A stretch of 64,000 nucleotides of DNA from a virus (lineage: Duplodnaviria; Caudoviricetes): IMG/VR virus record IMGVR_UViG_3300033066_001054; one strand, 5' to 3'. Below the pieces are notes generated by a model. It saw only the letters and a program-made list of their open reading frames with translations. It was not told where the DNA came from and did no database searches. Below, one piece after another: positions 10,634 through 54,484 of the stretch; positions within the stretch are counted from its first letter, which is position 1, and every line of letters starts with the position of its first letter. The position numbers and the translations under genes were made by a program.

Positions 10634-13081
10634 ATGGCAAGAGTTTCAGTAGAACACAGATTCACCGGAACAACAGGCCCAATTGATAGTCTTTCAGCAC
10701 CTACAGTTAGCGTTACAAACATCGGTGCCACCGGTGCCACGACATATGGATATCGAGTATCGGCTATCAACAGTGTTGGGGAAACATTGGCCTCGAGTAC
10801 GGTAACCACCGCGACGGGCAACTCGTCATTGACAGGGTCTAACTACAACAGAATTAGCTGGACTAGGGTAATTGGCGCGACAGGATACAAGGTTTACGGA
10901 CGAACTTCTGGTTCCGAGTTGCTTATGGCAACCGTTACAACAGCAAATCATTATGATGACACAGGCGCGGTAACGCCATCTGGGGCATTGCCAAGTACAA
11001 ACACCACAGGGTATTCGTCGTCTAGAACATCTATTGGCACCCTGATGCGACAACAAACTGGCACTGCCGATATTGATAAATGGGTTGGCCCATTCCCTGT
11101 TGGAATCAGTCGACCCATGGAAGGCAGCACTCAGATTCCAGGCATTATGCCGCATGTTATTAGGTGGAGTGGTGATATTGATTGGATTTTCTTGGCCGAT
11201 AACGCCACCGCAACGACAAGTCGTAGAATAGTATTCTACACATACACTCGGTCAACTAATACACTTGCATGGGAGGGCTTTGTCACAATTACCCATCCAA
11301 GCGGCACCAACGCCACTATACGTGGATTTAGAATGGTGTACGACACCTACACTACTGGAACAGTGAGCGTGACCGGAACATCGGTAACCGGAAGTGGTTC
11401 AGCTTGGTCAACAAACAGAATTGCTGTTGGTAGTCGGATTGGATTTGGTTCAACAGACCCAAACTATATTACAAGATGGTATGAAATCTCGGCTATTGGT
11501 TCTGACACGGGTATAACACTCGCCGTAGCGGTTGACGCAAGCGTTGCCGCAAACACACCATATGTCATAGAAGAACTTAGAGTAGTTATGGCTCAAACCA
11601 ATAACACCGCAACTTCTGGTGGTTTGTTCGTAGCAAAGGGATTAAGGCCAGAGTTGTTTATCACCTCTGGCACTGCAATTGCGGCTGCTACAACCACCGA
11701 CAATCAAAGAGCGTGTTATTGGCTTGCAGACGCCTCTACTGTTACAAATACAACCTCTCTGGGATTTGGTCTCCAGGCTAAGACCTCATATACAGCACAA
11801 AACGTATATGTTTTGGATGGAACATCTGCATGTAAGGTGTTTGTTTACAATATCAGGGCGTCATTAACTGGTTTAGCGTCTGGAAAATCAACTTCTGCTC
11901 TGTCTTTCTCAACTGGAACACAAACGCTTACTGGAACGGCCGGCCAGGTAAATAATGGAAGAATGGGCACGCTGTCTCATGGCCCGGGTTCAGGTATTGA
12001 GTGCCTATATTTCTGCACTGGTACTCGTGTGTATCGAGCCAAAATTACAGATATTGTCAGCGGTTCAACTGTATGGATTTCAGACTGTATGGTTGAGATA
12101 CCTACGGGTAGCGCAAGTACATATGCCGCAACCGGTGTGTTGAGCAGTGTGGAGGTAGCGGACTCATTAGACAGGTTAATTATTACTTCTACTGGTGCGT
12201 CCGGTGTGAGGCATTACGTTACAAAATACCAAACCAATGTAGAACAATTCGATTTGATTTGGGGAGTTGACATAAAACAAATTGACCAAACACTTGCCGA
12301 CGCCAATACACCGATTGTGCCAGGCAATATTCTCGCTACACCATTTACCGTTTGGTCTGAGGCAGGATTAACATACTTGGCCCGCGTAGGCACTGCAGCC
12401 ACAAACAATCATCTATACGTAGTTCCATTTGGGGCACATTGGGGATTTCAGTCTGCTGCGCCAACGCAGCGAGTTATCACTCCAGAAATCAGCACACCAA
12501 ATTGTTTTATGTTTCACAGGGCATGTATGTCATTTGTGAAAAAACTAGGGGCTGATAAGTTTTCCATATCACCAGAACCAATCAAAATGTTCTATCGAAC
12601 GAATGGAATTACGGACAATAGTGGTACATGGTATGAACTTGATGACTATGCAGATTTATCCGGTGTTGCGCCATCTTCCAGTATACAGTTTATGTTTGAA
12701 TTCAAAATCATAGGCAATTACTGTGTTCCAGGTAGGCTGCTGGGGTGTGAGGTTATGTACGAGATTGAAGACACATTGCCGTCACACCTTCAATGGAACC
12801 TTAACGATTCCAATAACTCTAATGGCACAGTTGGGTTTATTCAAAAATCCACTTATGGAAGTGTGCCCAATTTGGAAATCAACTACTATCGCTCAGATAA
12901 CGATGTTAACTTACTCACGCAAGACAGTACATCTAGCACATATGGAGCATTTGAGTATTGGACAGGTGCGGCATGGGCAGCAGGGCTAGGTTCTGATGCA
13001 GTTAACCAAAGAAGAAGATTTGTGCCATCATCTGGATTGCCAGCAAGCACGAACGTCTACGCTAAAATCAAGGTGATATAA
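10634..13081 (+). CDS. Tail fibre/receptor-binding-like protein, paralogue A
   Basis: 815 aa, T/S/G-rich; FN3-like TYGYRVSAINSVGET and fibre-like GTVSVTGTSVTGSG motifs. Confidence 0.65.
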   Translation: MARVSVEHRFTGTTGPIDSLSAPTVSVTNIGATGATTYGYRVSAINSVGETLASSTVTTATGNSSLTGSNYNRISWTRVIGATGYKVYGRTSGSELLMATVTTANHYDDTGAVTPSGALPSTNTTGYSSSRTSIGTLMRQQTGTADIDKWVGPFPVGISRPMEGSTQIPGIMPHVIRWSGDIDWIFLADNATATTSRRIVFYTYTRSTNTLAWEGFVTITHPSGTNATIRGFRMVYDTYTTGTVSVTGTSVTGSGSAWSTNRIAVGSRIGFGSTDPNYITRWYEISAIGSDTGITLAVAVDASVAANTPYVIEELRVVMAQTNNTATSGGLFVAKGLRPELFITSGTAIAAATTTDNQRACYWLADASTVTNTTSLGFGLQAKTSYTAQNVYVLDGTSACKVFVYNIRASLTGLASGKSTSALSFSTGTQTLTGTAGQVNNGRMGTLSHGPGSGIECLYFCTGTRVYRAKITDIVSGSTVWISDCMVEIPTGSASTYAATGVLSSVEVADSLDRLIITSTGASGVRHYVTKYQTNVEQFDLIWGVDIKQIDQTLADANTPIVPGNILATPFTVWSEAGLTYLARVGTAATNNHLYVVPFGAHWGFQSAAPTQRVITPEISTPNCFMFHRACMSFVKKLGADKFSISPEPIKMFYRTNGITDNSGTWYELDDYADLSGVAPSSSIQFMFEFKIIGNYCVPGRLLGCEVMYEIEDTLPSHLQWNLNDSNNSNGTVGFIQKSTYGSVPNLEINYYRSDNDVNLLTQDSTSSTYGAFEYWTGAAWAAGLGSDAVNQRRRFVPSSGLPASTNVYAKIKVI

Positions 13082-15525
13082 TGGGTAAGGTAGTGGTCGA
13101 ATCAGTATTTAGCACTGCCTCTTTTGCGCCAATTGATACGATAGGCACGCCAACTGGTGTCGCAGTAACAAATGTTGGCACTGCAGGTGCTACAACATAC
13201 GGATATCGAATATCTGCGGTTAATAGTGTCGGAGAAACACTTGCGTCATCAAGTACAACAACCACTACCGGAAATGCCGCCCTCAGTGCTTCTAACTTCA
13301 ATAGGATTGCCTGGAGTCGAGTGATGGATGCCGCGTCTTACAAGATTTATGGCAGGACTAATGGTTCAGAATTGTATATGGGCACCACAACTGGTCTGCA
13401 TTTCGATGACACCGGTGCTGTTACCCCATCTGGTGCTTTGCCTGGCTCAGATACGTCAAAATATGATTCAACAAAGGTGTGTATAGGTACGGCACTCGAA
13501 TACCAGTCATCGGACAAAAGCGTTGGTCCATTGCCCGTACAAATTGCTAGACCATCAGAAGGCAATATTCAAGTACCAATAAACTTTGTTACCGCAGTCA
13601 CGTGGAGCAGCAATATTGATTGGATTTTTGGTGCTGACGCTGCAAGTGCTGCGGCCACAAGACGAATTGTCATGTTTGAATACAATCGGAGTACTGGTGT
13701 GCTTACGAGTCGCGGTTTTATCACACTTACATACCCTCCTGCAACCAACCATACCATTCGAGGAATTGCTGTTGGATATGATGTGTACACCAAAGGTTCT
13801 GTGGCTGTCACTGGAACTGCTGTTACCGGCACTGGGTCTACATGGACAACAGACCGCCTGGCTGTGGGCAGTCGTATAGGATTTGGTTCTACGGACCCCT
13901 CTCAAATTACCAGATGGTATGAGATTTCTGCTGTTGGAACTGACACAAGTATTACGCTTACTGCGTCAATTGACGCCACCATTGCCGCTGGTTCAGCATA
14001 TTGTATTGAAGACCTTAGAATTTACACAACCACCACAAATGCCACATCAACCAACGGAGGACTGTTTGTGGTTAAGGGCCTAAAACCTGAAGTTTTTACC
14101 TATGCAGGAACTACAATATCAGCCGCTACGAATGCCGATAGCATCCGTGCAGTTTACTGGCTGGCAGATGCGTCTACGGTCACTAATACTGGCTCGTGTG
14201 GTGCGTGCTTAGAAACCAAGGCAAGCTGGACTTCACAATTTTTGTATGTTTTAGACAACGCATCAAATAGCAAGTTTTACAAATACAACGTGCGTGCCGC
14301 GCTTACGCCAGCATCTGGAAAAGATACAACGTCTTTGAATTTACAAACAGGAACATCTGCTGTTACAGGAGTCATACAATCATTCAACAATGGTCGACTC
14401 GTAACAACGGGGCATGGGCCAGGAAGCGGTGCATCTTGCATATATTACACGACTGCTTCAAGGGTGTATAGAGCCGCTGTATCTGGTATCACTGCAGCAA
14501 GCACTACATTCAACAACGACAACATGACCGAGGTGCCGCCCGGTGGAACCAGTACATATGCTGCGACTTCGGCTATTCAGGGAATAGACTACATATATGG
14601 AATCGACAGATTTGCTGTGTACACCACCAGCAGCGGTTCTACACGCCATTATGTTACACAATACCAAACCGGCGGAAGTCAGTTTGATAGTATTTTCTCA
14701 GTAGATAGCAAGCAAATAGACCACACACTATGCAACCCAGAGATGGCACCACCATCATTGGTTCAGAATACAAGTGTTAACGTGACGTCATTCACAAACT
14801 ATAACACTACGTATTTTACTAAAGGCGGAGGAACTGGATTGCTGTCTTGGCTGTATACTTGTAATTTTGGCAGTGATTATGCATTTACGCATATTTCAGG
14901 CAACGACCAGTCTATCATAACACCAGAAATGACATGTACTGGCAACGTGATGTTTTATCGTGTCTATGTCAATCACTTAAGAGCACATGGTTCAGACAAA
15001 TACAACCATATACCTGCTGAACCTTTCAAAATCTGGTATCGCACTAGTGGTATTAGTGACAATAGCGGCGGGTGGACTTTGGTCCCTGCCGGGGGAGTGT
15101 TAACTGGTGTAACCGCAACCAGCTCTATTCAATTCAGAATACGATTCAAAACAATTGGGGCACATTGTCTCCCAACCAAGATATATGGCGTATGTGTTGT
15201 GTATGAATCCTCGGCTGATATGCCATCACACCTAAAATGGAATTTTGCTGATACAAATAACAGTACTGGTACTGTTGGATTTGTGCAATGTTGTTATTAT
15301 GGCAGTGTCCCAAACTTACAAATTGACTACTACAGAGCAGATACAGATGCTAACGTATTGTCCCAGGCTAGTACAAGTAGTACTAATGGTGTTTTTGAAT
15401 ATTGGGATGGTTCTGCATGGACGGCTGGTCTGGGTACAGATACAATTGATATACGACGCAGGTTTAGGCCAACGGCGTCGTTACCAACCGGTGTCAATGT
15501 CTACGCAAGGGTGAAGGTAATTTAA
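13081..15525 (+). CDS. Tail fibre/receptor-binding-like protein, paralogue B
   Basis: 814 aa, colinear with A (GSRIGFGSTDP, WLADASTVTNT, FEYW.G..W..GLG.D). Confidence 0.65.
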   Translation: MGKVVVESVFSTASFAPIDTIGTPTGVAVTNVGTAGATTYGYRISAVNSVGETLASSSTTTTTGNAALSASNFNRIAWSRVMDAASYKIYGRTNGSELYMGTTTGLHFDDTGAVTPSGALPGSDTSKYDSTKVCIGTALEYQSSDKSVGPLPVQIARPSEGNIQVPINFVTAVTWSSNIDWIFGADAASAAATRRIVMFEYNRSTGVLTSRGFITLTYPPATNHTIRGIAVGYDVYTKGSVAVTGTAVTGTGSTWTTDRLAVGSRIGFGSTDPSQITRWYEISAVGTDTSITLTASIDATIAAGSAYCIEDLRIYTTTTNATSTNGGLFVVKGLKPEVFTYAGTTISAATNADSIRAVYWLADASTVTNTGSCGACLETKASWTSQFLYVLDNASNSKFYKYNVRAALTPASGKDTTSLNLQTGTSAVTGVIQSFNNGRLVTTGHGPGSGASCIYYTTASRVYRAAVSGITAASTTFNNDNMTEVPPGGTSTYAATSAIQGIDYIYGIDRFAVYTTSSGSTRHYVTQYQTGGSQFDSIFSVDSKQIDHTLCNPEMAPPSLVQNTSVNVTSFTNYNTTYFTKGGGTGLLSWLYTCNFGSDYAFTHISGNDQSIITPEMTCTGNVMFYRVYVNHLRAHGSDKYNHIPAEPFKIWYRTSGISDNSGGWTLVPAGGVLTGVTATSSIQFRIRFKTIGAHCLPTKIYGVCVVYESSADMPSHLKWNFADTNNSTGTVGFVQCCYYGSVPNLQIDYYRADTDANVLSQASTSSTNGVFEYWDGSAWTAGLGTDTIDIRRRFRPTASLPTGVNVYARVKVI

Positions 15526-17939
15526 TGGCTAAAATTGCAGTAGAACATGTTTTTGGAAGTGCCACTGTACCATTAGTGCCACTCGAGGAACCAACCAATG
15601 TGTTGGTAACAAATTTTGGCACACCTGGTGCAACAACGTATACATATTACGTATCGGCATACAATACATATGGCGAAACTCTGGCCACAACAGCGATAAC
15701 AACGACTGGTAACGGAACTCTTTCTGCATCTAATTTCAATCGAATTTCATGGGATAAAGTGTGGGGTGCAACTGGATATTACGTTTACAATAGTTCTGGC
15801 GCATTTGCCCCAACTTCAAATTTACATTTTGATGACGTTGGTACTTCCTCAACAGCAAGAAGCCAACAAGAGTCAAACACCAGTGGATATAACTCACTGT
15901 ATACATCTGCTGGCACGTTGATGTATCAATCAGGAGGGGCCATTGGTCCAATGCCAGTTAAGGTTGCAAGACCGATGGGGCAATCAACGGCATTTCAGTG
16001 CGCATTTCCTTCTGTTGTATCATGGAGTCCTACGGTTGATTGGGTGTTTTTAATTGAAGGTAGTGCGGCGGCGGCGACGAGGCGGGCGATGCTTTACGAA
16101 TTTGACCGCAGTACAGATGCGTTTACATGGAAGGGTTATGTCACATTAACATTTCCAACAGCTACAAACCATACAGTTCGCGGCTTTGCAATGACCTATG
16201 ACATATATGCCACCGGTACTGTGAGTGTATCTGGAACGGCAGTTACTGGTTCTGGCACCGCTTGGTCTACAAGTAGGCTTGCGGCAGGTTCGCGTATTGG
16301 ATTTGGCTCAACAGACCCCAATCAAATTAGTACATGGTATGAAATCTCAACCATTGGTTCCGACACAAGTATAACCTTAACAGCAACTGCTGGTACAATA
16401 TCGGCCAATAGTGTATATTGCATCGAAGACTTAAGAGCGGTTGTTTCAACCACTAACGCTACTGCGGCCAATGGCGGATTATTTGTAGCCAAGGGACTGA
16501 AGTATGAGAACTTTGTGTCGGGCGGCACCACTATTTCAGCGGGCGTGTCGACAGATAATGTGCGTGCTGTATTTTGGCTTGCTGATGCCAGTACAGTAAC
16601 AAATACCGTTGCTTGTGGCAATGCCGTATCTGACAAAACAGATTGGAATACTCAATATTGTTACAGTATAGATACAACAGCAACACCAAAAGTATACAAG
16701 TATAACTTACGTGCTTCTTTATCTGGTTTGTCCTCTGGTAAATCAACATCAGCACTTGTTTTGATAACCGGAACTCAAACAGTTACTGGCACTACCTCTC
16801 AACAAAACAATGGCGAAGTAGTTGTGGCAAATCACGGACCCGGAAAGGATATTGAGTGCCTTTATTTCGTTACTACAACACGCGCCTATAGGGCAAAAAC
16901 ATCAGAAATTGTCAACGGCTCTACGGTGTGGATTGCAGACTGCTATGTAGAAATCCCGCCAGGTGGCACCAATACATTCGCCGCCACATCTGCGCTAGGA
17001 TACATTGAACACACTGATTTTATGGATGATTTTGTGGTGTATTCAACTGGTGCGACTTCTTTTCGTAGTTATATTACAGATTATGCTTCTGCCATTTATC
17101 CTTTTGAGTCAATGCTTGGTTATGACACTAAGCAATTAGACCAATCTGGCGCAGATGCAAATTCAGCTCCGCACCCTTCAATTGGTGTTTCTCAATTGGT
17201 TTCGTGGAATGAAGAAGGGATGCACTACGTTTTAAGGCAAAACTCTTCATCCACACTAAATCAATTGTATGCAGTACCGCTTGCTGCATGTTATACTCAC
17301 GCATGGGAAAGCGGTCGTGAACAATATGTTATCACGCCAGCTCTGCCAACCCCAAATGGGGCGACTTTGTATCGAGCATATGCCAATACCCTTTTGGCGC
17401 ACGGCGGCACAGATGCGTTAATGGTTGAGGCCGAACCTGTTAAAATATGGTACAGAACCGAAGGAATATATGATAACTCTGGTGTGTGGTACTTATTATC
17501 GGATAACGGTGATTTAACTGGTGTAAAGACCGGCAAAGACATTCAATTTAGGCTTGCATTTAAGGTTATTGGCGGGCATCAACTGCCATCTAAAGCATAT
17601 TCTGTTTGTGTGGTTTACGACACTGATACAGATTTGCCATCACATTTACAATGGAATATGGGAGACACAAATTCAAGCACTGGCATTGTTGGTTTTATTC
17701 AAAAAGGAACTTACGGAAGCGTACCCAATTTGCAAATATCATACTATCGTTCAGATAACGACCAGCTTATCTTAACCCAGGCAAGTACCGGTTCTACTTA
17801 TGGTGCATTTGAGTACTGGAATGGTTCTTCGTGGGCATCTGGACTTGGTACTGACACCAACGGAATACGTCGAAGGTTCAACCCAACCATAGGTATCTTG
17901 ACAGGAATTAACGTATATTGTAAATTGAAGGTGGTGTAA
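15525..17939 (+). CDS. Tail fibre/receptor-binding-like protein, paralogue C
   Basis: 804 aa, colinear with A and B. Confidence 0.65.
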   Translation: MAKIAVEHVFGSATVPLVPLEEPTNVLVTNFGTPGATTYTYYVSAYNTYGETLATTAITTTGNGTLSASNFNRISWDKVWGATGYYVYNSSGAFAPTSNLHFDDVGTSSTARSQQESNTSGYNSLYTSAGTLMYQSGGAIGPMPVKVARPMGQSTAFQCAFPSVVSWSPTVDWVFLIEGSAAAATRRAMLYEFDRSTDAFTWKGYVTLTFPTATNHTVRGFAMTYDIYATGTVSVSGTAVTGSGTAWSTSRLAAGSRIGFGSTDPNQISTWYEISTIGSDTSITLTATAGTISANSVYCIEDLRAVVSTTNATAANGGLFVAKGLKYENFVSGGTTISAGVSTDNVRAVFWLADASTVTNTVACGNAVSDKTDWNTQYCYSIDTTATPKVYKYNLRASLSGLSSGKSTSALVLITGTQTVTGTTSQQNNGEVVVANHGPGKDIECLYFVTTTRAYRAKTSEIVNGSTVWIADCYVEIPPGGTNTFAATSALGYIEHTDFMDDFVVYSTGATSFRSYITDYASAIYPFESMLGYDTKQLDQSGADANSAPHPSIGVSQLVSWNEEGMHYVLRQNSSSTLNQLYAVPLAACYTHAWESGREQYVITPALPTPNGATLYRAYANTLLAHGGTDALMVEAEPVKIWYRTEGIYDNSGVWYLLSDNGDLTGVKTGKDIQFRLAFKVIGGHQLPSKAYSVCVVYDTDTDLPSHLQWNMGDTNSSTGIVGFIQKGTYGSVPNLQISYYRSDNDQLILTQASTGSTYGAFEYWNGSSWASGLGTDTNGIRRRFNPTIGILTGINVYCKLKVV

Positions 17940-17955
17940 TTCACCGGGACAATAA

Positions 17956-20433
17956 ATGGCAGATGGAGTTCAGTTAGGCGGCGGACCACTGCTACTAGCT
18001 CCCTCAATCGCGTTGGCGTTCAATGGAACAATTGTTGGTCCATCGGGCGCAGATACAATTGTTGGAACCGGTAGCCAGTCTGGAATTTCAGGTATCTTTA
18101 CGATTCCTGAAGAGTCATTTAACATCCAAGGCGGAAGCGGAACAATAGCCTTTGCTCCGATTGTCGGGGGTGGTTCAATGGTTCTTACTGGCATTGGCAC
18201 CGCCAATCAAACCATTACCCACACCAGTATTGCTGCTGTGGATTCATATGGAACACACAGCGTGGCAGCAGGGACTATCACACTGACAACCAGTTCGATT
18301 GGAACCTCTGGTACTTACGGCACACACACAGCAGTTCCTGGCGCGGTAACAATAGTTCACACTTCATTATCTACCAGCGCATCATATGGTTCGCACACAT
18401 TAGCAAGCACAATAGCCATATTGCCATCCAGTATTGTAGCAGTAGATGCTTATGGAACACACACTATTGCTCCAGGCACGGCAACAATCACGCATACAAG
18501 TTTAGCAACAGCCGAGGCTTATGGGACACACACTATTGTTCCAGGTAGTGTAACAATAGTTCACAACAGTCTATCTACATCGGCTTCTTACGGCACGCAC
18601 ACCTTGGTCGCCGGCACGGTAACAATAGCACACACTTCACTGTCGACAAGTGCGTCTTATGGTTCACATACAATTTCAACATCTTACTTGATTACACACA
18701 GTTCTATATCGAGCAATGTTGCATATGGCACACATACATTAGTGGCCGGCGCGGTAACAATAGTACACACCTCACTGTCGACAAGTGCGTCTTATGGCAC
18801 ACATACAATTGAGTCTGGAAGTAGTACGATTATTCATACAAGTGTTGGTTCGGCAGAGTCATATGGTACTCACACGCTGTCACCCGGTGGAGTCGTTGTG
18901 ACACACACAAGCATCGGAACGGCGGCTGCATATGGCACTCATACACTGGCCAGTTCATACAACATTGTTCATAACAGCGTGTCTTCAAACAGCGCATATG
19001 GCACCCACACTGTTTTAGTGGGAGCAGTGGCAATTATTGCGACCTCAATATCAACTGCAGCGTCATATGGAACACACACATTATCTGCTGGCGGCGTAAC
19101 GATTACTCATACCTCGATTGGTGCAACCAGTACATATGGCTCTCACACAATTGCCGTTGGTGGAGTAAATATTTCACATATCAGCCTGTCGAGTAATGCG
19201 TCTTATGGCACGGCCACTATAACCCCCGGTGTCGTAAACGTCATCCATGCCAGCATAGGCACTGCAGCCTCGTATGGTGCCCACACAGCCGTTGTTGGTG
19301 GTGTATCAATAATCACGAGTGGGGTGGCAACCAGCGCGTCCTACGGGGCGCACACATTGGTTCCTGGCGGTGTTGTTGTTGTTGCAACCTCAATTAGCAC
19401 TGCGGCTGCATATGGAACACACAGTATGTCAGCAACGTACTCGATTGTGGCCGGTAGTATTGGGGCTTCTAGTTCTTACGGCACACATACGTTTACTGTC
19501 GGAGGCGTGAACATATTGGCTACAAGCCTGTCTAGTGGTGCATCATATGGAACGCACACAATGGTTCCTGGTGCAGTAACCATTGTGCCAACCTCAATTA
19601 GTACGGCGTCAAGTTATGGTAACCACACCATGGTTCCTGGCACAGTATATGTGGTTGCGACTGGATTGTCGACACAAGAGTCATACGGAGTACACGAGGT
19701 TGTATCCAGTAACGTCAATCTTTTCCTAAGTAGTATCGCCAGTTCAGAAAGCATTGGTGCCACTACATTATATGTCAACACTAACATTGTTCTATCCAAC
19801 GGCGTCTCATCAGGTTTTGTTGCCAGCACGCACGTCATGGTGGCGGGAGAAGTCCTTATTATTGTTGGTGGAATAGCCAGCGAAAGCGCAATAGGACTGA
19901 CCGCACTGCAATCAACGTATTACATACTTGCAGTCTCTATTGGAACTACAGAAAGCATTGGAACCCACGCAATGGATGTGACATACTTGATTAGTGTTGA
20001 TGGCGTTTCTAGCGTACACAGCATTGGTGCAACAACATTACATACCACATACCAAATCACAATTGGGTCTGGAGTATCTTCTACAGAATCGGTCTCAACT
20101 CCGTATATCTTGATTGGCCCTGTGTTTATAGACGCAGTATCTGTTCCTGGCGGAGATGCGTATGGAGCACCAAACCTGTATGCCATTGCTTACATTTCAC
20201 CAAATTCAATTGGTTCAATATTGTCACTTGGCGACGCAAGGTTGCAACTTCCAGCTATACCAGCACAACTAACATCCCAGTTCGTTGCCGAACCATGTGT
20301 GGCAACTAGTCGTATCGCACCGTGTGATAGTTCAACACAAGCAGTGCCTATGCTGAGGTCTACTGCAAGGTTTGTGGAAGTCAGTTGTATCATCGAAGAG
20401 ACGAATCCAAGTTCAGAGATAGCTTTCTTGTAG
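17956..20433 (+). CDS. Repeat-rich fibre-like structural protein
   Basis: About 20 imperfect 22-23-aa repeats, consensus HTSLSTSASYGTHTLVAGAVTIV. Confidence 0.65.
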   Translation: MADGVQLGGGPLLLAPSIALAFNGTIVGPSGADTIVGTGSQSGISGIFTIPEESFNIQGGSGTIAFAPIVGGGSMVLTGIGTANQTITHTSIAAVDSYGTHSVAAGTITLTTSSIGTSGTYGTHTAVPGAVTIVHTSLSTSASYGSHTLASTIAILPSSIVAVDAYGTHTIAPGTATITHTSLATAEAYGTHTIVPGSVTIVHNSLSTSASYGTHTLVAGTVTIAHTSLSTSASYGSHTISTSYLITHSSISSNVAYGTHTLVAGAVTIVHTSLSTSASYGTHTIESGSSTIIHTSVGSAESYGTHTLSPGGVVVTHTSIGTAAAYGTHTLASSYNIVHNSVSSNSAYGTHTVLVGAVAIIATSISTAASYGTHTLSAGGVTITHTSIGATSTYGSHTIAVGGVNISHISLSSNASYGTATITPGVVNVIHASIGTAASYGAHTAVVGGVSIITSGVATSASYGAHTLVPGGVVVVATSISTAAAYGTHSMSATYSIVAGSIGASSSYGTHTFTVGGVNILATSLSSGASYGTHTMVPGAVTIVPTSISTASSYGNHTMVPGTVYVVATGLSTQESYGVHEVVSSNVNLFLSSIASSESIGATTLYVNTNIVLSNGVSSGFVASTHVMVAGEVLIIVGGIASESAIGLTALQSTYYILAVSIGTTESIGTHAMDVTYLISVDGVSSVHSIGATTLHTTYQITIGSGVSSTESVSTPYILIGPVFIDAVSVPGGDAYGAPNLYAIAYISPNSIGSILSLGDARLQLPAIPAQLTSQFVAEPCVATSRIAPCDSSTQAVPMLRSTARFVEVSCIIEETNPSSEIAFL

Positions 20434-45813: not shown

Positions 45814-47070
45814 TTAGTCTATGACTGTCTTACCTGCAAATTCTAGTTCATACTTGCGTAATGCGCTCATAAGTTCATGGTCTGAGCTACTGTCCATCAC
45901 GTCGCTGACACTTCGGCCACTCTTAAGACCCTCAAATGCCTGCGGCCAAACGGCGTAGTATTCAGTGTCTTCAACTGGTTTGCCAGCAGCAACAGCGTTT
46001 TCATAACCCTCACTAATAAATCTTGCCAGGTAAAGAACTCGGTTCAAAACATTTCTAAGCGTCGGCGGGGCCGCCATAGCACCAACATATGAATCGGCGA
46101 CTGCGGAAATGCCAGTAACTGTTGCTGTCTCACCAGAGCCACCAGAGCCACCAGAGCCGCCAGAGCCGCCGCCACCTGTGCCAGTGTCCGTTGGGTCTGG
46201 GTCTGTGACAATGGTAAAGCCCTCAACATCTAGCATCCTGAGTTCCCTGAGTGCAGACATTTCATCATCCACAGAGTAGATACGCATGGCTTCTGAATAC
46301 CTTGGGTTTCTGATTTTAAGCCTGTTGAAGTTTTTGTCGACAACAACATATCCTTCATTTTTATGAGCGTCTGGCTGTTCTTCAATCAGTTCATAAACCT
46401 GGGCCAGCGAGCGTACTTTTTTATAGGGAGCAACCTCTCCGTGAAATTTCATGTTGAAGATGTCAATTTCTTTGAGTGTTTTTCTGTTGACGGCTGCGAC
46501 AAGATATAAATGTGATGTCGAATACAATACCACAACCCTGTTGTCTGGTGTGACTAGTTCAAAAACATAGGACACATCTGGATTGAGCTTGCTTGTGAAC
46601 TCTGCCCAGCTTGTGCCGTTGTTCATAAGTGCTTCTTCAACCAGTTGTCTCCATGTAACAGTTCTGCCAGAACCATTTGGACTTCGCACAATTGAGCTGC
46701 CATCGGCACTAAACCTAGTTGAACACCGCCATTGTCCTTTGTAATGATACATACACACTAATGCGCCGTCGATTTTGTGCATTGCTTTAGCACTAGACCA
46801 ATCAAACTGGTCTGCAATTGCCTTATATCCAGATTCACTGGGTTCAAAAAATGCGCCTATTGGTTTGCAAACAACGTCCCATGTATCGAGCTCCAAAATC
46901 AAACCACGGCACTCTCTGACAATCGGAGAAGATTTTGGACTCAGGGGTCTGTAGTTGAACACCACAACTCCCAATTCGTGATTGACGAAGTGTTGTATGT
47001 CGTATCGCTGATACAGATTTTGCAGCGTCTTGCCAGAACGCAAAAACTCAGATGTGTGTGTCGTGGTCAT
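45814..47070 (-). CDS. T4 Rnl1-family RNA ligase with (GGS)n linker and C-terminal extension
   Basis: RECRGLIL, motif I KIDG, STR, FEL..P.NRVV..Y, EGYVV and RLKI. Confidence 0.85.
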   Translation of the reverse strand: MTTTHTSEFLRSGKTLQNLYQRYDIQHFVNHELGVVVFNYRPLSPKSSPIVRECRGLILELDTWDVVCKPIGAFFEPSESGYKAIADQFDWSSAKAMHKIDGALVCMYHYKGQWRCSTRFSADGSSIVRSPNGSGRTVTWRQLVEEALMNNGTSWAEFTSKLNPDVSYVFELVTPDNRVVVLYSTSHLYLVAAVNRKTLKEIDIFNMKFHGEVAPYKKVRSLAQVYELIEEQPDAHKNEGYVVVDKNFNRLKIRNPRYSEAMRIYSVDDEMSALRELRMLDVEGFTIVTDPDPTDTGTGGGGSGGSGGSGGSGETATVTGISAVADSYVGAMAAPPTLRNVLNRVLYLARFISEGYENAVAAGKPVEDTEYYAVWPQAFEGLKSGRSVSDVMDSSSDHELMSALRKYELEFAGKTVID

Positions 47071-49930: not shown

Positions 49931-51553
49931 TTAGTCTTCGAATTCTACTGGCTTTGCTTCTTTAGCTCCACCAACAAAAGCCGCGATAACCTGCGGGACA
50001 TCAGCCGAGAATCCGGCAATGTCGAGCGCAAGCGGGTCACTTGGGTCTGCGATGCTGAAGTTGCTGGCCGATGTAGCCATAACAACCTGTCGAGCATCCT
50101 TAACAAACGCCTTTCGGTAGTTTGCCAAGGCGACCTTTGGATGTACGCTTCCGAAGTATGTTTCGTTGTCGGTGATGACAATGAAGACATCGTATTCGTG
50201 CTTGCGCTCTCCAGCCCAAATCATTGGCAACGAACAGTCTGTTCGACCGAAGTTGTTCATTTGCGCCTTCTTCATTGCTTCGCTTAGGCTCATCTTTCGA
50301 GTGAACCCAAGGTCAACAAATCGGTCAGCAAATCCCATGACTTCGACTGTTGGTTCTGTTGCTGCCCAGACCATTGACATGGCTGCAGCGACTTCACAGG
50401 CAGACAGACCGCCAGGAAGACCGCTAGTCCAGCTCATTGAGCCAGAAACGTCAACGCCAACCAAGAATCGCTTACCGGTTGGTTCAACGTTTGCAAACGC
50501 CTTATAGAAGGCATCGTCAAGCGAAGACACAACCGCCGAAATTGGATTCCAAGAACCAGAACCCTTCATACCATGACCGCTTTGGTAAGTCTTCATGGCT
50601 ACAAGGACTTGGATTGGGTGAACACGAGACTTTCGAATGTATTCAGCGTCTTCCAGCTTCTTGAGCACCAACTTGGTTGCCGCATTGCCTGGCTTAAGCA
50701 ACTCTGACTTTGTCATGTTGCCCAAGTTTCGAATCAATGCATTCAACGGCATGTGCGGAAGCATTGCATCCCAGACCTCTGGCGCGTTCAAGAACTGCGT
50801 CGGAACAGCCTCTCGAGGCAACTTGTAGTCAGTAATCAGCTTGACAACTTCCTTTGCAGAAGAAGCCTGTGATGCTGCCAAATATCCCTCGACAATTGCC
50901 GGCTGGCTGACTTCTGGAGTCCACTTGTCGTCTACAATCCAGCGATACAGAGCGTTTCGCGATGCATCACCATTCGGAGAAGGGTGACCAACACGCAGAA
51001 CGTCAGCATGGCTCCAACCATTTCGGTTGCGGTACTTGACTGCCTGAAATGCAACTTGGTCAACATCTCTGGCGTCATACCAATTCTTGATTGTTCGCTT
51101 AATTGCACGACCAGTCAGCTTGCGCAATGACTTCAACTCCTCTAGGAAGTAGAAGAACGTTGACGCAGTTCGGCACACATCATTGACGGATGCCAATGCG
51201 GCTTGTCGTGTTTCAAGGTCTCCCTCTGCGGCTGCGACAGCAAGTGCGAACAGAGCGTGGTCTTGCTTTGGTGCAAGGCCTCGAATTGAAACGTCCTTGA
51301 TTCGGTTCACAACACGCAGGCCGTCTGCCTTAAGGCACGCCTTAAGTGCAGCGTAGTTCCGCTTCACGTGCTTGTCCTGGTTGCAGTAATACGTTCCACC
51401 CTCAGCACCGAGAATCAAGAATCTGTCGAGCTGACCCCAAATGCCGATGTCGTAGACGAATCCACCAGCGTCATTCTTGACCTGGCGCTCGTCCAATTGT
51501 TCTGTCTGCCGAACCTTGTTCGGTGATGGCTTAACTGTTGTTGCGTATCTCAT
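49931..51553 (-). CDS. rsr: Ro60/Rsr TROVE-domain RNA-binding protein
   Basis: NDAGGFVY..LDRFLILGAEGGTYY, KYRNRNGWSHAD, ALIRNLG, SRVHP; vWA MIDAS DVSGSM, TDCSLPM, TDNET. Confidence 0.95.
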   Translation of the reverse strand: MRYATTVKPSPNKVRQTEQLDERQVKNDAGGFVYDIGIWGQLDRFLILGAEGGTYYCNQDKHVKRNYAALKACLKADGLRVVNRIKDVSIRGLAPKQDHALFALAVAAAEGDLETRQAALASVNDVCRTASTFFYFLEELKSLRKLTGRAIKRTIKNWYDARDVDQVAFQAVKYRNRNGWSHADVLRVGHPSPNGDASRNALYRWIVDDKWTPEVSQPAIVEGYLAASQASSAKEVVKLITDYKLPREAVPTQFLNAPEVWDAMLPHMPLNALIRNLGNMTKSELLKPGNAATKLVLKKLEDAEYIRKSRVHPIQVLVAMKTYQSGHGMKGSGSWNPISAVVSSLDDAFYKAFANVEPTGKRFLVGVDVSGSMSWTSGLPGGLSACEVAAAMSMVWAATEPTVEVMGFADRFVDLGFTRKMSLSEAMKKAQMNNFGRTDCSLPMIWAGERKHEYDVFIVITDNETYFGSVHPKVALANYRKAFVKDARQVVMATSASNFSIADPSDPLALDIAGFSADVPQVIAAFVGGAKEAKPVEFED

Positions 51554-51630: not shown

Positions 51631-51764
51631 TATGCGGTCAAGATGTGAGAACGACGTTTAGCTGCTCTACCAACTGAGCTACAACCTCCTTGCGGAGATT
51701 GGTGGGACTCGAACCCACGACCAGCCCTTTAGCATAGGTAATCGTAACTCGTTCGTACCGCACA
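51631..51764 (-). ncRNA. yrlA: YrlA-type Y RNA (tRNA-mimic domain)
   Basis: Terminal stem TGTGCGGTACGAAC../..CTTGACCGCATA (Ro site) encloses a T arm GTGGG-TTCGAGT-CCCAC, a loop-closed acceptor-like stem CAATCTCC-GCAA-GGAGGTTG and a D arm TAGCTCAGTTGGTAGAGC; adjacent to rsr. Confidence 0.9.
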
Positions 51765-52021: not shown

Positions 52022-52546
52022 CTAACATCGCCCTCCAGCCCGCCAATTTTGGAGCAGTCCTCTTTCTGTCACTTCTTTCACTGCCTTTGATACAATTTTC
52101 CATGCTTCCCATGGCATATCGCGTCTGATGTAATTACAAGACCAACAACAAGGTTGAACATTATTTTGGGTGTGCCCAATTGTATTGTCAATTCTGTCCA
52201 AACTTAGTTTTTCTTGACTCGTGCAATATGCGCAACCATTCTGAATCAATGCCTGAACAAATTCTATTGTTAAATCATTATCAAAACCCTTTTTTCTATC
52301 ACTCCCTTTTGCGTCTCGCACAATGAATTTTGCACGTGTGGTCTTGTCTTGTCGAGCGGCTTGACGTTGTTCTTTTTCGATTGCCTTTCTTCGCTCCCAT
52401 ACCTCTGGATTGTTTTCATAATACCATCGGCGCATTTTGTATCTACAACTTTCGCATGCACCCCTGTGATATATTCTGCCTTCTTTGACTATTTGTTGAA
52501 AATTCTCAATGGATTTTTCTTCTTTGCACTTAGAACATGTCTTCAT
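52022..52546 (-). CDS. His-Me finger/HNH-type endonuclease
   Basis: CSKC..CESC, CAYC..LDRIDN..GH..NNV.PCC..CN. Confidence 0.8.
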   Translation of the reverse strand: MKTCSKCKEEKSIENFQQIVKEGRIYHRGACESCRYKMRRWYYENNPEVWERRKAIEKEQRQAARQDKTTRAKFIVRDAKGSDRKKGFDNDLTIEFVQALIQNGCAYCTSQEKLSLDRIDNTIGHTQNNVQPCCWSCNYIRRDMPWEAWKIVSKAVKEVTERGLLQNWRAGGRC

Positions 52547-52606: not shown

Positions 52607-52693
52607 TGGTGGGGGCCGTGGGATTCGAACCCACTCAGGCAAATGCCAACAGTTTTACAGACTGGCCCAGCTCTCCTACTCTGGCGCACCCCC
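52607..52693 (-). tRNA. tRNA-Tyr(GTA), atypical
   Basis: GGGGGTG..CAGT-CTGTAAA-ACTG, long variable arm, GTGGG-TTCGAAT-CCCAC, ACCA; G7:G66 mismatch. Confidence 0.8.
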
Positions 52694-52707
52694 AAAATCA
52701 ACAAATT

Positions 52708-52794
52708 TGGTGGGGGTGACAGGATTCGAACCTGCAATGCCTTGCGACGCCAGGGTTACAGCCTGGTAGGGCAACCAGTCGCCCCAACACCCCC
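52708..52794 (-). tRNA. tRNA-Tyr(GTA) with extended D stem
   Basis: GGGGGTG/CACCCCC-A-CCA; CCAGG-CTGTAAC-CCTGG; TTCGAAT T-loop. Confidence 0.85.
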
Positions 52795-52821
52795 GATTGT
52801 ATAGTTATAGTCACTTTCCAT
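52756..52821 (-). CDS. Tyr-codon mini-ORF (MESDYNY..., 21 aa) running into tRNA-Tyr
   Basis: AGAAAGACA ATG GAA AGT GAC TAT AAC TAT; the stop falls in the anticodon loop. Confidence 0.55.
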   Translation of the reverse strand: MESDYNYTIGGVGATGCPTRL

Positions 52822-52848
52822 TGTCTTTCTCTCTCTCTCTCTGAAATT

Positions 52849-53143
52849 TGGTATCAACGGCAGGACTCGAACCTACAGTACGCCCTCCAATGCTTGCATG
52901 CTATGGGCGCGTGTTACCTATCTATCGTCAAATTCACTACTGGGTTATGTACTCACCGAACCTTACTCACACTTCATACTCACCAACAATCCGGACCAAA
53001 CCTGTCTGGCGTTCAACCAGCTCAACGTTTCTAAAGCCTGCAAGCATGATATTTGGGCGTTCATGCTGGATTTCTTGATGTTTTCGTGTTCAACTTTCTC
53101 TAACTTTTCATTCCTCCTATTGTCAAAATTACACTACGTCGAT
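52849..53143 (-). ncRNA. tRNA-like element with ~210-nt D-loop insertion and enlarged anticodon arm
   Basis: ATCGACG/CGTTGAT-ACCA acceptor, GTGT/ACAC D stem split by the insert, CGCCC/GGGCG stem with a 19-nt loop, GTAGG-TTCGAGT-CCTGC. Confidence 0.6.
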
Positions 53144-53162
53144 ATAAACTGTCTGCGCCAGG

Positions 53163-53236
53163 GGTGACCAAAGGAACTCGAATCCTCAATCTTCTGGGCC
53201 ACAACCAGACGCTTTAACCGATTAAGCTATGGCCAC
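53163..53236 (-). tRNA. tRNA-His(GTG), no encoded G-1 or CCA
   Basis: GTGGCCA/TGGTCAC-C; TCTGG-TTGTGGC-CCAGA; TTCGAGT T-loop. Confidence 0.85.
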
Positions 53237-53371
53237 ACCTCGCGCGGTGTTCAAAACTTGGGGCGACCGAGGGGTATCGAGCCCCCTAGTGATTTGGTTC
53301 ACAGCCAAACCCCCTCGCCTTCTGGGTCCGACCGCCATGTTATTCAGTTGTGTATGATGATGGTCGTCCAT
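53222..53371 (-). CDS. His-codon mini-ORF (MDDHHH..., 49 aa) reading through tRNA-His
   Basis: AGAAAGACA ATG GAC GAC CAT CAT CAT; open across the first His tRNA and stops in the D arm of the second. Confidence 0.55.
   Translation of the reverse strand: MDDHHHTQLNNMAVGPRRRGGLAVNQITRGLDTPRSPQVLNTARGVAIA
53259..53336 (-). tRNA. tRNA-His(GTG), atypical T loop
   Basis: G-1:C73, GCGGTCG/CGGTCGC, TTTGG-CTGTGAA-CCAAA, T loop CTCGATA, CCA. Confidence 0.8.
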
Positions 53372-53396
53372 TGTCTTTCTTTCCTAACTACAAAAT

Positions 53397-53470
53397 TGGC
53401 TGGCACGGGTGGATTCGAACCACCATCCATGGAGTAACAGTCCATTATTCTACCGTTGAAATACATGCCA
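53397..53470 (-). tRNA. tRNA-Asn(GTT)
   Basis: TGGCATG/CGTGCCA-G-CCA; ATGGA-CTGTTAC-TCCAT; TTCGAAT. Confidence 0.9.
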
Positions 53471-53472
53471 GT

Positions 53473-54021
53473 TCAGTTTAGCCATTTCCTAATTGCGTTG
53501 TCTGATACCCCGTAGAGTCTTCCAACTGCTGAGACACTCATAGACCTCAATTGGTTAATCAAAATCTCTTTCGTGGGTCTTTCGCATTTTCTGCTTGCGA
53601 TTCTATAACACTCCGCACAGCAATATTTTTGTCCTTTGTTTTTTGGCTTGTATTGCTTGTTGCAAGTTTCGCAAGCCGATATCAACAATAACTTAATTTG
53701 CTTTTCTTGAGGTGACTTTTTCTTGTGCTTCTCCCATTTGTTGTCGTCTTTTGTTGCTTGCCATTTGTAATGTAGTTCTGTATGACATCTTACACACAAC
53801 AAGTCACATTTATCTGCTTCTGCTTTAAGTCTTTCATAAGACCATGATTTTCCACTAATGGTCAAGTCTTTTTGATTCGGGTCTCGATGATGAAATGCAT
53901 ATGCTGGCGGACAATCTTCTTCGTAACCACATTGGATACATTTTCCACCTTTGTACTCAATCAGCAATCTTTTTACCCTTCTTCTCCATGACACAACCTT
54001 GTGTGTTTTACTTGCACTCAT
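53473..54021 (-). CDS. HNH homing endonuclease with C-terminal HTH, between the two tRNA-Asn genes
   Basis: KGGKCIQCGY..FHHRDP..K..KCDLLCVRCH..LH; GRLYGVSDNAIRKW. Confidence 0.85.
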   Translation of the reverse strand: MSASKTHKVVSWRRRVKRLLIEYKGGKCIQCGYEEDCPPAYAFHHRDPNQKDLTISGKSWSYERLKAEADKCDLLCVRCHTELHYKWQATKDDNKWEKHKKKSPQEKQIKLLLISACETCNKQYKPKNKGQKYCCAECYRIASRKCERPTKEILINQLRSMSVSAVGRLYGVSDNAIRKWLN

Positions 54022-54074
54022 AAGTGTTTGTTAACCAAAAAAGTTAACCATACCTCTGTATGAGTTCGAAATTT

Positions 54075-54150
54075 TGGAGGCCCGCCTGGGTTCTGACCCC
54101 AGCCCTTTCCGTTTAACAGACGTCTGCAACTACCAGCTTGCTCACGAGCC
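54075..54150 (-). tRNA. tRNA-Asn(GTT), strongly atypical
   Basis: GGCTCGT/GCGGGCC-T-CCA; GCAA/TTGC D stem; CGT-CTGTTAA-ACG; T loop GTCAGAA. Confidence 0.7.
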
Positions 54151-54197: not shown

Positions 54198-54221
54198 CTA
54201 ATTATTGTCGTTGTCCTCCAT
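54198..54221 (-). CDS. Asn-codon mini-ORF MEDNDNN
   Basis: GAGGAAAAGGACA ATG GAG GAC AAC GAC AAT AAT TAG, 47 nt before tRNA-Asn. Confidence 0.55.
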   Translation of the reverse strand: MEDNDNN

Positions 54222-54243: not shown

Positions 54244-54280
54244 AAAAAAAGAAAGCCCGACCTTGTGAGCCGGGCTTTCT
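54244..54280 (-). terminator. Attenuator terminator of the tRNA operon
   Basis: AGAAAGCCCGGC-TCACAAG-GTCGGGCTTTCT followed by a T run. Confidence 0.9.
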
Positions 54281-54302
54281 TGGGGATTGGTCAATCTTAC
54301 GA

Positions 54303-54416
54303 TTAAGCCTGGTACCCCCAGTTAGCCCGAACCATATTGGGATAATTATGCACGGCGGTATTGGCCTGATAGGCCAACCGTGTGCTTCCATTATGGTTAT
54401 TCAAGCTAAATCGCAT
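54303..54416 (-). CDS. Asn/His/Tyr-rich leader peptide (37 aa)
   Basis: MRFSLNNHNGSTRLAYQANTAVHNYPNMVRANWGYQA; AAGGA RBS 6 nt upstream; lies between promoter and terminator. Confidence 0.8.
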   Translation of the reverse strand: MRFSLNNHNGSTRLAYQANTAVHNYPNMVRANWGYQA

Positions 54417-54455: not shown

Positions 54456-54484
54456 ATTATACAACAGACTTCGTTTTTTGTCAA
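54456..54484 (-). promoter_or_regulatory. Consensus sigma70 promoter
   Basis: TTGACA (54479-84), 17 nt, TATAAT (54456-61). Confidence 0.9.

Follow-up and report, generated by a model that had tools for sequence, protein, structure and literature searches.

The window analysed here, a whole stretch of 64,000 nt from IMG/VR virus record IMGVR_UViG_3300033066_001054 (Duplodnaviria; Caudoviricetes), carries on its minus strand at positions 52607-54150 a group of six tRNA genes, two each for Asn, His and Tyr, in which every anticodon is GUN. A first-pass annotation, made from the letters alone, had described this group as a tRNA cluster restricted to queuosine-family anticodons in divergent duplicate pairs, and had proposed nuclease-resistant replacements or decoys as its role. 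With default settings, ARAGORN calls four tRNAs in the entire 64-kb window, all on the minus strand and all inside this interval. Rfam supports the same four (Asn-B, His-B, Tyr-A and Tyr-B) and covariation backs the other two (Asn-A and His-A), so the annotated count of two each for Asn, His and Tyr stands. The ARAGORN check that the annotation had proposed thus recovers four genes at default, Asn-A only with the threshold lowered to 80%, and His-A at no threshold, lowered ones included; the Rfam tRNA model gives no match to either Asn-A or His-A at E ≤ 10. No tRNA-Asp is among the ARAGORN calls, in keeping with its annotated absence from the window. For three amino-acid types all falling within the four GUN types, we estimate post hoc a probability of P ~0.0035.

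Along the transcribed strand, Asn-A (54075..54150) has anticodon GUU in the loop CUGUUAA, a G1-C72 pair, U73, an encoded CCA and the T loop GUCAGAA. Asn-B (53397..53470; Rfam 63.3 bits) has U1-A72, G73, CCA and the loop CUGUUAC, with C at position 38 (C38). His-A (53259..53336) combines G-1:C73 and an encoded CCA with the loop CUGUGAA, a 3-bp D stem and the T loop CUCGAUA. His-B (53161..53236; Rfam 64.1 bits) has no G-1 (U at position -1), C73 and the loop UUGUGGC; its 3′ end reads CC and then T, leaving A76 unencoded, and CCA is encoded in the other five of the six tRNAs. Both Tyr tRNAs are class II molecules with A73 and CCA. Tyr-A (52708..52794), with the loop CUGUAAC and hence C38, finds its best Rfam clan match in the tRNA-Sec model (38.5 bits), and Tyr-B (52607..52693; Rfam 31.0 bits) has the loop CUGUAAA. 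All six loops read YUGUNNN, that is, they keep U33-G34-U35. The T loop is canonical in four of the six, Asn-A and His-A deviating in the window. On reading the sequence, the anticodon loops quoted in the annotation (CTGTTAA/CTGTTAC, CTGTGAA/TTGTGGC, CTGTAAC/CTGTAAA), the T loops GTCAGAA and CTCGATA and the U73 of Asn-A are all correct, and the 'extended D stem' mentioned beside them could not be seen. Pair members have little sequence in common, as had been stated: they are 59-71% identical, about the level of unrelated tRNAs of the cluster (55-67%).

We used the neighbouring gene for a Ro60/Rsr orthologue (49931..51553, minus strand; Pfam TROVE 2.3e-33, vWA_Ro60 7.6e-57) as an anchor, which led to the IMG/VR genome G001, 478,840 bp long with terminal repeats, where the locus L001 encodes a 93% identical Rsr. 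Searches with the Rsr protein added the syntenic contigs L012 (89% identity), L014 (78%), L016 (76%), L013 (71%) and L074 (56%). The window is therefore a member of a clade of ~480-kb megaphages. The comparison of the operon covers seven sequences, the window and these six relatives; Rsr homologues in bacterial context (L015 and L075) or in a different phage (L076) were excluded. A 542-aa upstream protein used as an alternative anchor recovered the same relative only, and the INPHARED phage collection held no close relative of the window, only short tRNA-level matches. Genome-wide statements rest on the complete relative G001 and the near-complete relative G002, not on the window's own genome. 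The second of these, G002 (GCA_018268375.1), is a metagenome-assembled genome (MAG) of the Armatimonadota, in which L014 sits on a 1.36-Mb contig, C5 (JAFDWS010000002.1). On this contig a ~0.5-Mb megaphage-like region, with tRNA arrays to ~520 kb, runs on into sequence of bacterial appearance (60% GC, scattered single tRNAs, TGT at 722 kb), which points either to a very large prophage or to a chimera made in assembly. The contig makes the MAG a candidate host, and the link is supported by the single His tRNA of the L014 phage, which has the MAG's unusual His identity and loop.

The operon is present in all seven sequences, down to 56% Ro60 identity, and its gene order is the same in each: promoter, leader open reading frame (ORF) and terminator; mini-ORF 1, Asn-A and Asn-B; mini-ORF 2, His-A and His-B; an optional element that we call el3; and mini-ORF 3, two Tyr tRNAs, a YrlA-like RNA (not seen in L074) and rsr. 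L014 is without His-A and has the single His tRNA just mentioned. Orthologues of Tyr-A occur in L012, L013 and L016, and an identical copy of Tyr-B occurs in L001.

The two genes that standard searches overlook in the window are well conserved among the relatives. At default, ARAGORN calls all six tRNAs in L013 and in L016, and likewise the Asn-A/His-A orthologues in L013, L014 and L016, where the T loops of the A copies read UUCGAGU or UUCGAUU. In the alignment of relatives, the His-A cloverleaf is 100% paired with eight double-compensated pairs, shifted registers giving at most one. Compared with L012, the window shows a compensated pair in the T stem of His-A, and G-1:C73, invariant in five aligned genomes, recurs in L074. 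For Asn-A, the alignment leaves out L012, whose 88-nt body is not alignable in register; it gives 94% pairing in the cloverleaf and compensation in 14 of 21 pairs. U73 and the loop of Asn-A are invariant in seven genomes, and its G1-C72 is invariant too. For comparison, Asn-B keeps U1-A72 and G73 with GUU in seven of seven genomes, and compensation in its anticodon stem is complete when the window is set against L001. Because the relatives' orthologues are called at default and the cloverleaves are kept by compensatory pairs, we conclude from the comparative evidence that Asn-A and His-A are genuine tRNAs. In L012 (L012:5689-5776) the Asn-A slot is taken by a class II-like tRNA of 88 nt; it has U73, a GUU anticodon and a long variable arm, and recognition of the seryl-tRNA synthetase type may be possible for such a long-armed molecule.

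Upstream of the tRNA genes and on the same minus strand, a sigma-70 promoter (54456..54484; TTGACA, 17 nt, TATAAT) agrees with the consensus at 12 of 12 positions, and equivalent TTGACA...TATAAT boxes are found in L001, L013 and L016. The leader ORF (54303..54416), MRFSLNNHNGSTRLAYQANTAVHNYPNMVRANWGYQA and a stop codon, has 37 codons, 12 of which specify Asn, His or Tyr and none Asp. This share of 32% is an enrichment over the phage background (P ~4e-4), and the start of the peptide, MRFSL..., is kept in L013 and L016. Between the leader ORF and the first tRNA lies an intrinsic terminator (54249..54281), a 14-bp stem followed by a U run; a GC hairpin with a T run stands at the equivalent place in each of the six relatives.

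Three mini-ORFs on the minus strand follow, each with cognate codons of its own tRNA pair and all with a common ribosome-binding context. Mini-ORF 1 (54198..54221; MEDNDNN, then stop) precedes the Asn pair and has the orthologues MEENDNN, MEDDNNNN, MEEGNNI and MEDDNKK. Mini-ORF 2 precedes the His pair, with its sensor part, MDDHHHTQLNNM, at 53337..53371; its frame continues into His-A, whose G-1 (53336) doubles as the third base of the final ATG. Its orthologues read MEDHHHSEQLN.., MDDHHHSGQLN.. and MDDHHHSRQLNTNM. A degenerate DNA pattern for mini-ORF 2 gave a single match in IMG/VR, unrelated and by chance. Mini-ORF 3 (52795..52821; MESDYNYTI) abuts Tyr-A and has the orthologues MESDYSYTN, MESDYTY, MESDYTN and MKDDYNYQS. 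The three peptides are conserved to the 56% relative as ME[DE].N.., M[DE]DHHH and MESDY.Y. The locus thus has the layout of an attenuator, conserved in relatives: a promoter, a short ORF rich in cognate codons and an intrinsic terminator upstream of the tRNAs. Together, promoter, leader, terminator and mini-ORFs probably reflect control that senses demand. Elsewhere in G001, a Gln tRNA operon (L008, G001:256000-257200, minus strand) has its own promoter and a leader ORF that ends in ...AVRQQQQQRTRSVA and a stop codon, with QQQQQ, and a Lys operon (L005, G001:167000-169000) has the leader MSIRLKRNKRNY, then stop, with a 419-aa lysyl-tRNA synthetase (LysRS) gene 1.3 kb downstream. We rejected the idea that cognate mini-ORFs are general to all tRNA groups, as there are none in the two big tRNA arrays of G001.

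Comparison with the candidate host shows where the two versions of each tRNA differ. In the MAG, tRNA-Asn has U1-A72, G73 and the loop CUGUUAA, tRNA-His has A73, no G-1 and the loop CUGUGGA, and for Tyr and Asp the comparison covered the anticodon loops, CUGUAAA and CUGUCAC. Asn-B, His-B and Tyr-A (B-type) have a host-like acceptor end but C38 in the anticodon loop: CUGUUAC against CUGUUAA in the candidate host, UUGUGGC against CUGUGGA, and CUGUAAC against CUGUAAA, the partner copies agreeing with the host at position 38. Asn-A and His-A (A-type) have A38 as in the candidate host but a foreign acceptor identity, U73 with G1-C72 in the one and G-1:C73 in the other. C38 is kept in six of seven genomes in Asn-B, in all six genomes that have it in His-B, and in five of seven in the first Tyr tRNA. 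G-1 paired to C73 is the hallmark of bacterial tRNA-His. His-B is without this canonical pair across genomes, with U or C at -1 and C73 or A73; in L013 and L016 it has A73 and no G-1. Isopentenylation by MiaA requires A36-A37-A38 (PMC5699536). Because C38 breaks this motif, Tyr-A is predicted to lack the isopentenyl modification of A37 (i6A37).

One candidate partner for an A-type tRNA is encoded by the phage. G001:260007-260804 (L019:1231-2031, minus strand) specifies a 266-aa catalytic core like that of histidyl-tRNA synthetase (HisRS), without an anticodon-binding domain and matching hisS at 163 bits, below the cut-off. In the phage part of G002 both this core and His-A are missing. The only match of the core in G002 is a 498-aa HisRS-like ORF beside the host tRNA-His (L047, G002:C6:28307-28419), and that tRNA has U at -1 (no G-1), C1-G72 and A73. 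Systems of tRNA-His and HisRS without G-1 are known from some alpha-proteobacteria. Neither an asparaginyl- (AsnRS) nor a tyrosyl-tRNA synthetase (TyrRS) was found in G001, and the class IIb synthetase of the phage, considered as a possible AsnRS for Asn-A, proved to be the LysRS and was rejected.

The rest of the tRNA set sets the operon apart. In huge phages the number of tRNAs reaches 67 (Al-Shayeb et al. 2020, PMC7162821). The tRNA model matches G001 at 63 places, and ARAGORN run on pieces of this genome finds ~60 tRNAs outside the operon; these cover every other amino acid, and Asn, His and Tyr are confined to the operon beside rsr. The Asp-GTC gene of G001 lies among Thr tRNAs. In the phage-like part of G002 (contig C5), two Asp-GTC genes stand side by side in an array, and tRNAs for Asn, His and Tyr are again limited to the operon; tRNA-Asp is never in the operon in seven genomes. 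The search for tRNA-Asp elsewhere that the first-pass annotation had proposed was thus successful, in distant arrays of both genomes. Restriction to GUN anticodons holds for the operon and fails for the phage, with its ~60 other tRNAs in distant arrays; the queuosine family is recognizable in the U33-G34-U35 of all six tRNAs but is incomplete, Asp being placed elsewhere. The divergent pairs are indeed old and separately conserved, yet such duplication is a genome-wide habit in G001 and not peculiar to this cluster: divergent duplicates with the same anticodon exist there for Glu, Phe, Val, Thr, Lys, Gln, Gly, Leu, Cys and Met. G001 also has suppressor-type tRNAs with the anticodons CTA (amber) and TCA (opal), at L004:10229-10304 and L007:569-643.

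Amino-acid usage offers an ordinary explanation for the choice of the three amino acids. Compared over 42 ORFs with the bacterial part of the MAG, the window's proteins use Tyr 1.80 times and Asn 1.52 times as much, the two highest ratios, and His 1.16 times; for the L014 phage part the ratios are 1.74 for Tyr, 1.54 for Cys, 1.32 for His and 1.28 for Asn. NAU codons make up fractions of 0.47-0.57 in the phage and 0.13-0.33 in the MAG. A set that mirrors phage codon usage was the account that the annotation had named as opposed to its own. The amino acids that the phage over-uses most, with the candidate host as reference, include Tyr, Asn and His, and the annotated interpretation is overall supported in part. 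Amino-acid demand fits a demand-sensing supply operon well.

We favour, with moderate confidence, the reading that this ~480-kb megaphage lineage has conserved an operon of Asn, His and Tyr tRNAs that probably responds to translation, with two distinct versions of each tRNA. Under this reading, slow reading of AAY, CAY and UAY codons by the ribosome would lead to more tRNA being made, a control that would resemble the attenuator of an amino-acid operon with tRNAs as its product. The shortage sensed could arise because phage proteins call for Tyr, Asn and His, and to a far greater degree for NAU codons, beyond what a GC-rich host can offer; alternatively, infection or defence could deplete Asn, His and Tyr tRNAs. 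The two versions would represent two independent routes to a working decoder: the B-type, given its host-like acceptor end, should be charged by host synthetases, and the A-type pairs a host-like loop with a different acceptor identity, for which, in the case of His-A, the phage HisRS catalytic core may serve.

Several observations weigh against this picture. The window copy of Asn-A may be decaying or weakening although the family is under structural selection, because it has two anticodon-stem mismatches, which are paired in L001, together with its aberrant T loop; non-canonical His-A T loops occur in several lineages. The leaders of L013 and L016 are far poorer in Asn, His and Tyr, and the C38/A38 split of the Tyr pair is not universal, L001 and L074 having CUGUAAA plus CUGUAGA. 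On the side of demand, the 42 window ORFs are mostly structural genes, His use is only modestly raised, and Cys outranks His and Asn in L014. The host assignment comes from one possibly chimeric MAG contig, for the relative L014 rather than the window's phage, and the co-occurrence of HisRS core and His-A is seen in two genomes.

The strongest competitor, tentative in our judgement, holds that the operon mainly serves to survive putative host anticodon nucleases acting on the tRNAs for these three amino acids, whether like colicin E5, like PtuAB or of another kind. In that case the C38 versions would be cleavage-resistant replacements, the A-type copies decoys or spare substrates, and the leader would switch the operon on when cleavage stalls ribosomes. 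The neighbourhood is suggestive: directly downstream of the operon and directly upstream of the Ro60/Rsr gene lies a YrlA-like Y RNA with a tRNA-like module (51645..51755, minus strand; Rfam RF02553, 41.2 bits against a gathering score of 69, E 6.7e-7), an Rnl1-like RNA ligase is encoded ~5 kb away at window positions 45814-47070, and RtcB is encoded elsewhere in G001. The conserved exchange of the candidate host's A38 for C38 in one member per pair has the pattern of a published proposal in which anticodon-loop mutations of phage tRNAs evade nucleases, colicin E5 targets being named (van den Berg et al. 2023, PMC10264068). There is also experimental precedent in the tRNA-Tyr of T5, which defeats the PtuAB of retron-Eco7 (PMC11555353), and T5 tRNA-Lys acts against PARIS (PMC11464382).

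The other leader-bearing tRNA operons of G001 decode Gln and Lys, whose tRNAs are likewise classic nuclease targets. What colicin E5 reads, however, is U33-G34-U35, and this element is kept in every copy; position 38 is to our knowledge not a colicin E5 determinant. tRNA-Asp, also a target of colicin E5, stands outside the operon, most tRNAs of G001 have divergent duplicates as well, and demand for amino acids can by itself account for these three. No nuclease has been identified in any host, no search of host genomes for nucleases having been made. Nuclease evasion is plausible, and it overlaps with the demand reading because a sensor of stalled ribosomes answers nuclease damage and plain shortage alike. 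The arrangement itself is conserved and unusual; that it was built to defeat tRNA-cutting defences is only a hypothesis, if a plausible one.

Somewhat less probable, and compatible with the favoured operon reading, is a private synthetase-tRNA pair, in which the A-type copies would be substrates of phage enzymes and His-A would be charged by the 266-aa HisRS core. Canonical HisRS reads G-1:C73 via its catalytic domain, which is the part that G001 encodes. G-1:C73 is invariant in His-A, the candidate host's tRNA-His has A73 and no G-1, and the phage part of G002 lacks core and His-A alike. Synthetases of huge phages have been suggested to charge the phage's own tRNA variants (Al-Shayeb et al., PMC7162821). 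On the other hand, no AsnRS or TyrRS was found for the Asn and Tyr tRNAs in G001, where the sole class IIb enzyme is LysRS, and the core, scoring below the hisS cut-off, could be a HisZ-like regulator.

A further reading, which we consider possible though unlikely, sees the tRNAs as backup decoders. Stalling at AAY, CAY and UAY codons, for example when a host destroys its own GUN tRNAs, would switch on two kinds of tRNA: (i) host-chargeable ones hidden by C38 from a nuclease or a modification enzyme, and (ii) phage-private ones with a foreign acceptor, such as His-A with a minimal phage-encoded HisRS. If so, feedback control of tRNA genes would be joined to an orthogonal synthetase-tRNA pair of viral origin, a combination new to viruses.

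The element el3 (52849..53143, minus strand), a ~295-nt tRNA-framed RNA, is a seventh tRNA-shaped RNA that the first-pass annotation missed. It has a 7-bp acceptor stem, a T arm, ACCA and a ~220-nt structured insert in the D region, and within it a 6-bp stem closes a 19-nt loop with GCAUGCAAGC. It is present in the window, in L012 (L012:6109-6405) and in L016 (L016:5770-6069), and absent from L001, L013 and L014. Folding the three copies together gives 70 pairs with compensation in 18, and the acceptor shows covariation (A-U to G-C). ARAGORN detects just the 3′ part of el3, at a 90% threshold. An assignment to tRNA-Met was rejected, as the anticodon stem is poor and the true, covarying acceptor partner lies ~290 nt upstream. 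Neither is el3 a tmRNA, of which ARAGORN finds none and for which all Rfam family matches fall outside el3, or an intron-bearing tRNA, no group I intron model having matched; Rfam holds no match for el3.

Two inserted genes, both on the minus strand, are window-specific. An HNH homing-endonuclease gene (53473..54021; PHROG 2255, E 1.8e-21) separates Asn-A from Asn-B, where the spacer is 3-4 nt in the six relatives, and a gene of the endonuclease VII-like/HNH type (52022..52546; PHROG 1035, E 1.1e-22; weak Pfam DUF5679 match) follows Tyr-B, between the tRNAs and the Y RNA. Farther away, window positions 10634-20433 (plus strand) hold four consecutive paralogue-sized ORFs of 804-825 aa, of which the one searched (10634-13081) has no PHROG match; most large window ORFs have none.

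These insertions, and the gain or loss of el3, lend some colour to neutral turnover, in which the second copies are by-products of tRNA gain, loss and homing-endonuclease traffic and Asn-A and His-A are decaying pseudogenes without a role. The same could be said of the Tyr partner, which is swapped between genomes and comes in four body types, of the different Asn-A body in L012, of the missing His-A in L014, and of the stem mismatches in the window Asn-A and the aberrant T loops of both A copies. We nevertheless think this account improbable: both series, A and B, are still found at 56% Rsr identity, with invariant loops and invariant U73 or G-1:C73, encoded CCA and many compensatory changes, among them the T-stem pair of His-A described above.

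Least probable by our reckoning is a queuosine-centred operon that groups TGT-modified tRNAs since the phage needs Q-independent or differently Q-modified NAY decoders: all six tRNAs have the loop used by TGT, the mini-ORFs with their Asp codons (MEDNDNN, MDDHHH, MESDY) include all four Q-decoded codon types and the candidate host has a strong TGT match (476 bits), but tRNA-Asp lies outside the operon in both near-complete genomes, the long leader has no Asp codon, and the proposed search for tgt/que genes found neither TGT nor DpdA in G001, only a 25-bit partial QueC-like match inside a 634-aa ORF that we rejected, so that the queuosine link is weak.

Phage tRNAs are usually explained by codon usage or, lately, by the replacement of tRNAs destroyed by defence systems, and this clade is a natural setting for testing these accounts: the virus, whose tRNA set is nearly complete, isolates three tRNAs behind codon-rich leader ORFs, in two versions each, and the differences between the twins fall in nucleotides read by synthetases and by anticodon-loop enzymes. 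If the favoured operon reading holds, translation itself can feedback-regulate tRNA supply, huge phages may run partly private decoding systems, and natural orthogonal tRNA-synthetase pairs and nuclease-resistant tRNA designs would be open to study. If it does not hold, the locus still documents well how tRNA genes turn over and how standard finders can overlook real tRNAs. In the literature searched, we found no published tRNA genes behind cognate-codon leader ORFs and no such paired identity sets.

The operon nevertheless shares traits with several known systems. As in the tRNA clusters of large phages (T4, T5, mycobacteriophage cluster C and huge phages), the tRNAs are distinct from those of the host and mostly CCA-encoded, homing endonucleases are interleaved, and synthetases and RNA-repair genes are found alongside. 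It differs from these clusters in that three amino acids are split from a near-complete set and have their own promoter, leader and terminator, and in the two conserved versions of each tRNA, which differ in identity nucleotides. As with the phage tRNAs for which a bypass of defence has been proposed or shown (PMC10264068, PMC11555353, PMC11464382), one copy per pair has loop substitutions relative to the host, and Tyr and the colicin E5 group are involved. Here, however, the base that differs is at position 38, which is not known as a site of cleavage or recognition, the operon has no Asp, and the genes are apparently feedback-regulated rather than simply strongly expressed.

The likeness to the his, thr, phe and trp leader attenuators lies in a promoter, a short codon-enriched ORF and an intrinsic terminator before the regulated genes; in the phage the products are tRNAs, three amino acids are sensed together, and each pair has an extra mini-ORF of 7-12 codons. 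Like atypical tRNA-His systems without G-1, the candidate-host tRNA-His and the His-B of L013 and L016 have A73 and no G-1, but the phage has both types side by side, and the His-B of the window has C73 without G-1. Finally, the rsr-Y RNA (YrlA) modules of bacteria and some phages likewise combine a Ro60 orthologue with a tRNA-like Y RNA, here adjoining tRNA genes; in the more distant Rsr-bearing phage contigs L002 and L003, tRNA arrays adjoin rsr too. In contrast to other such modules, the neighbouring tRNAs in this clade are those for Asn, His and Tyr only, and the tie between Rsr and the operon is positional.

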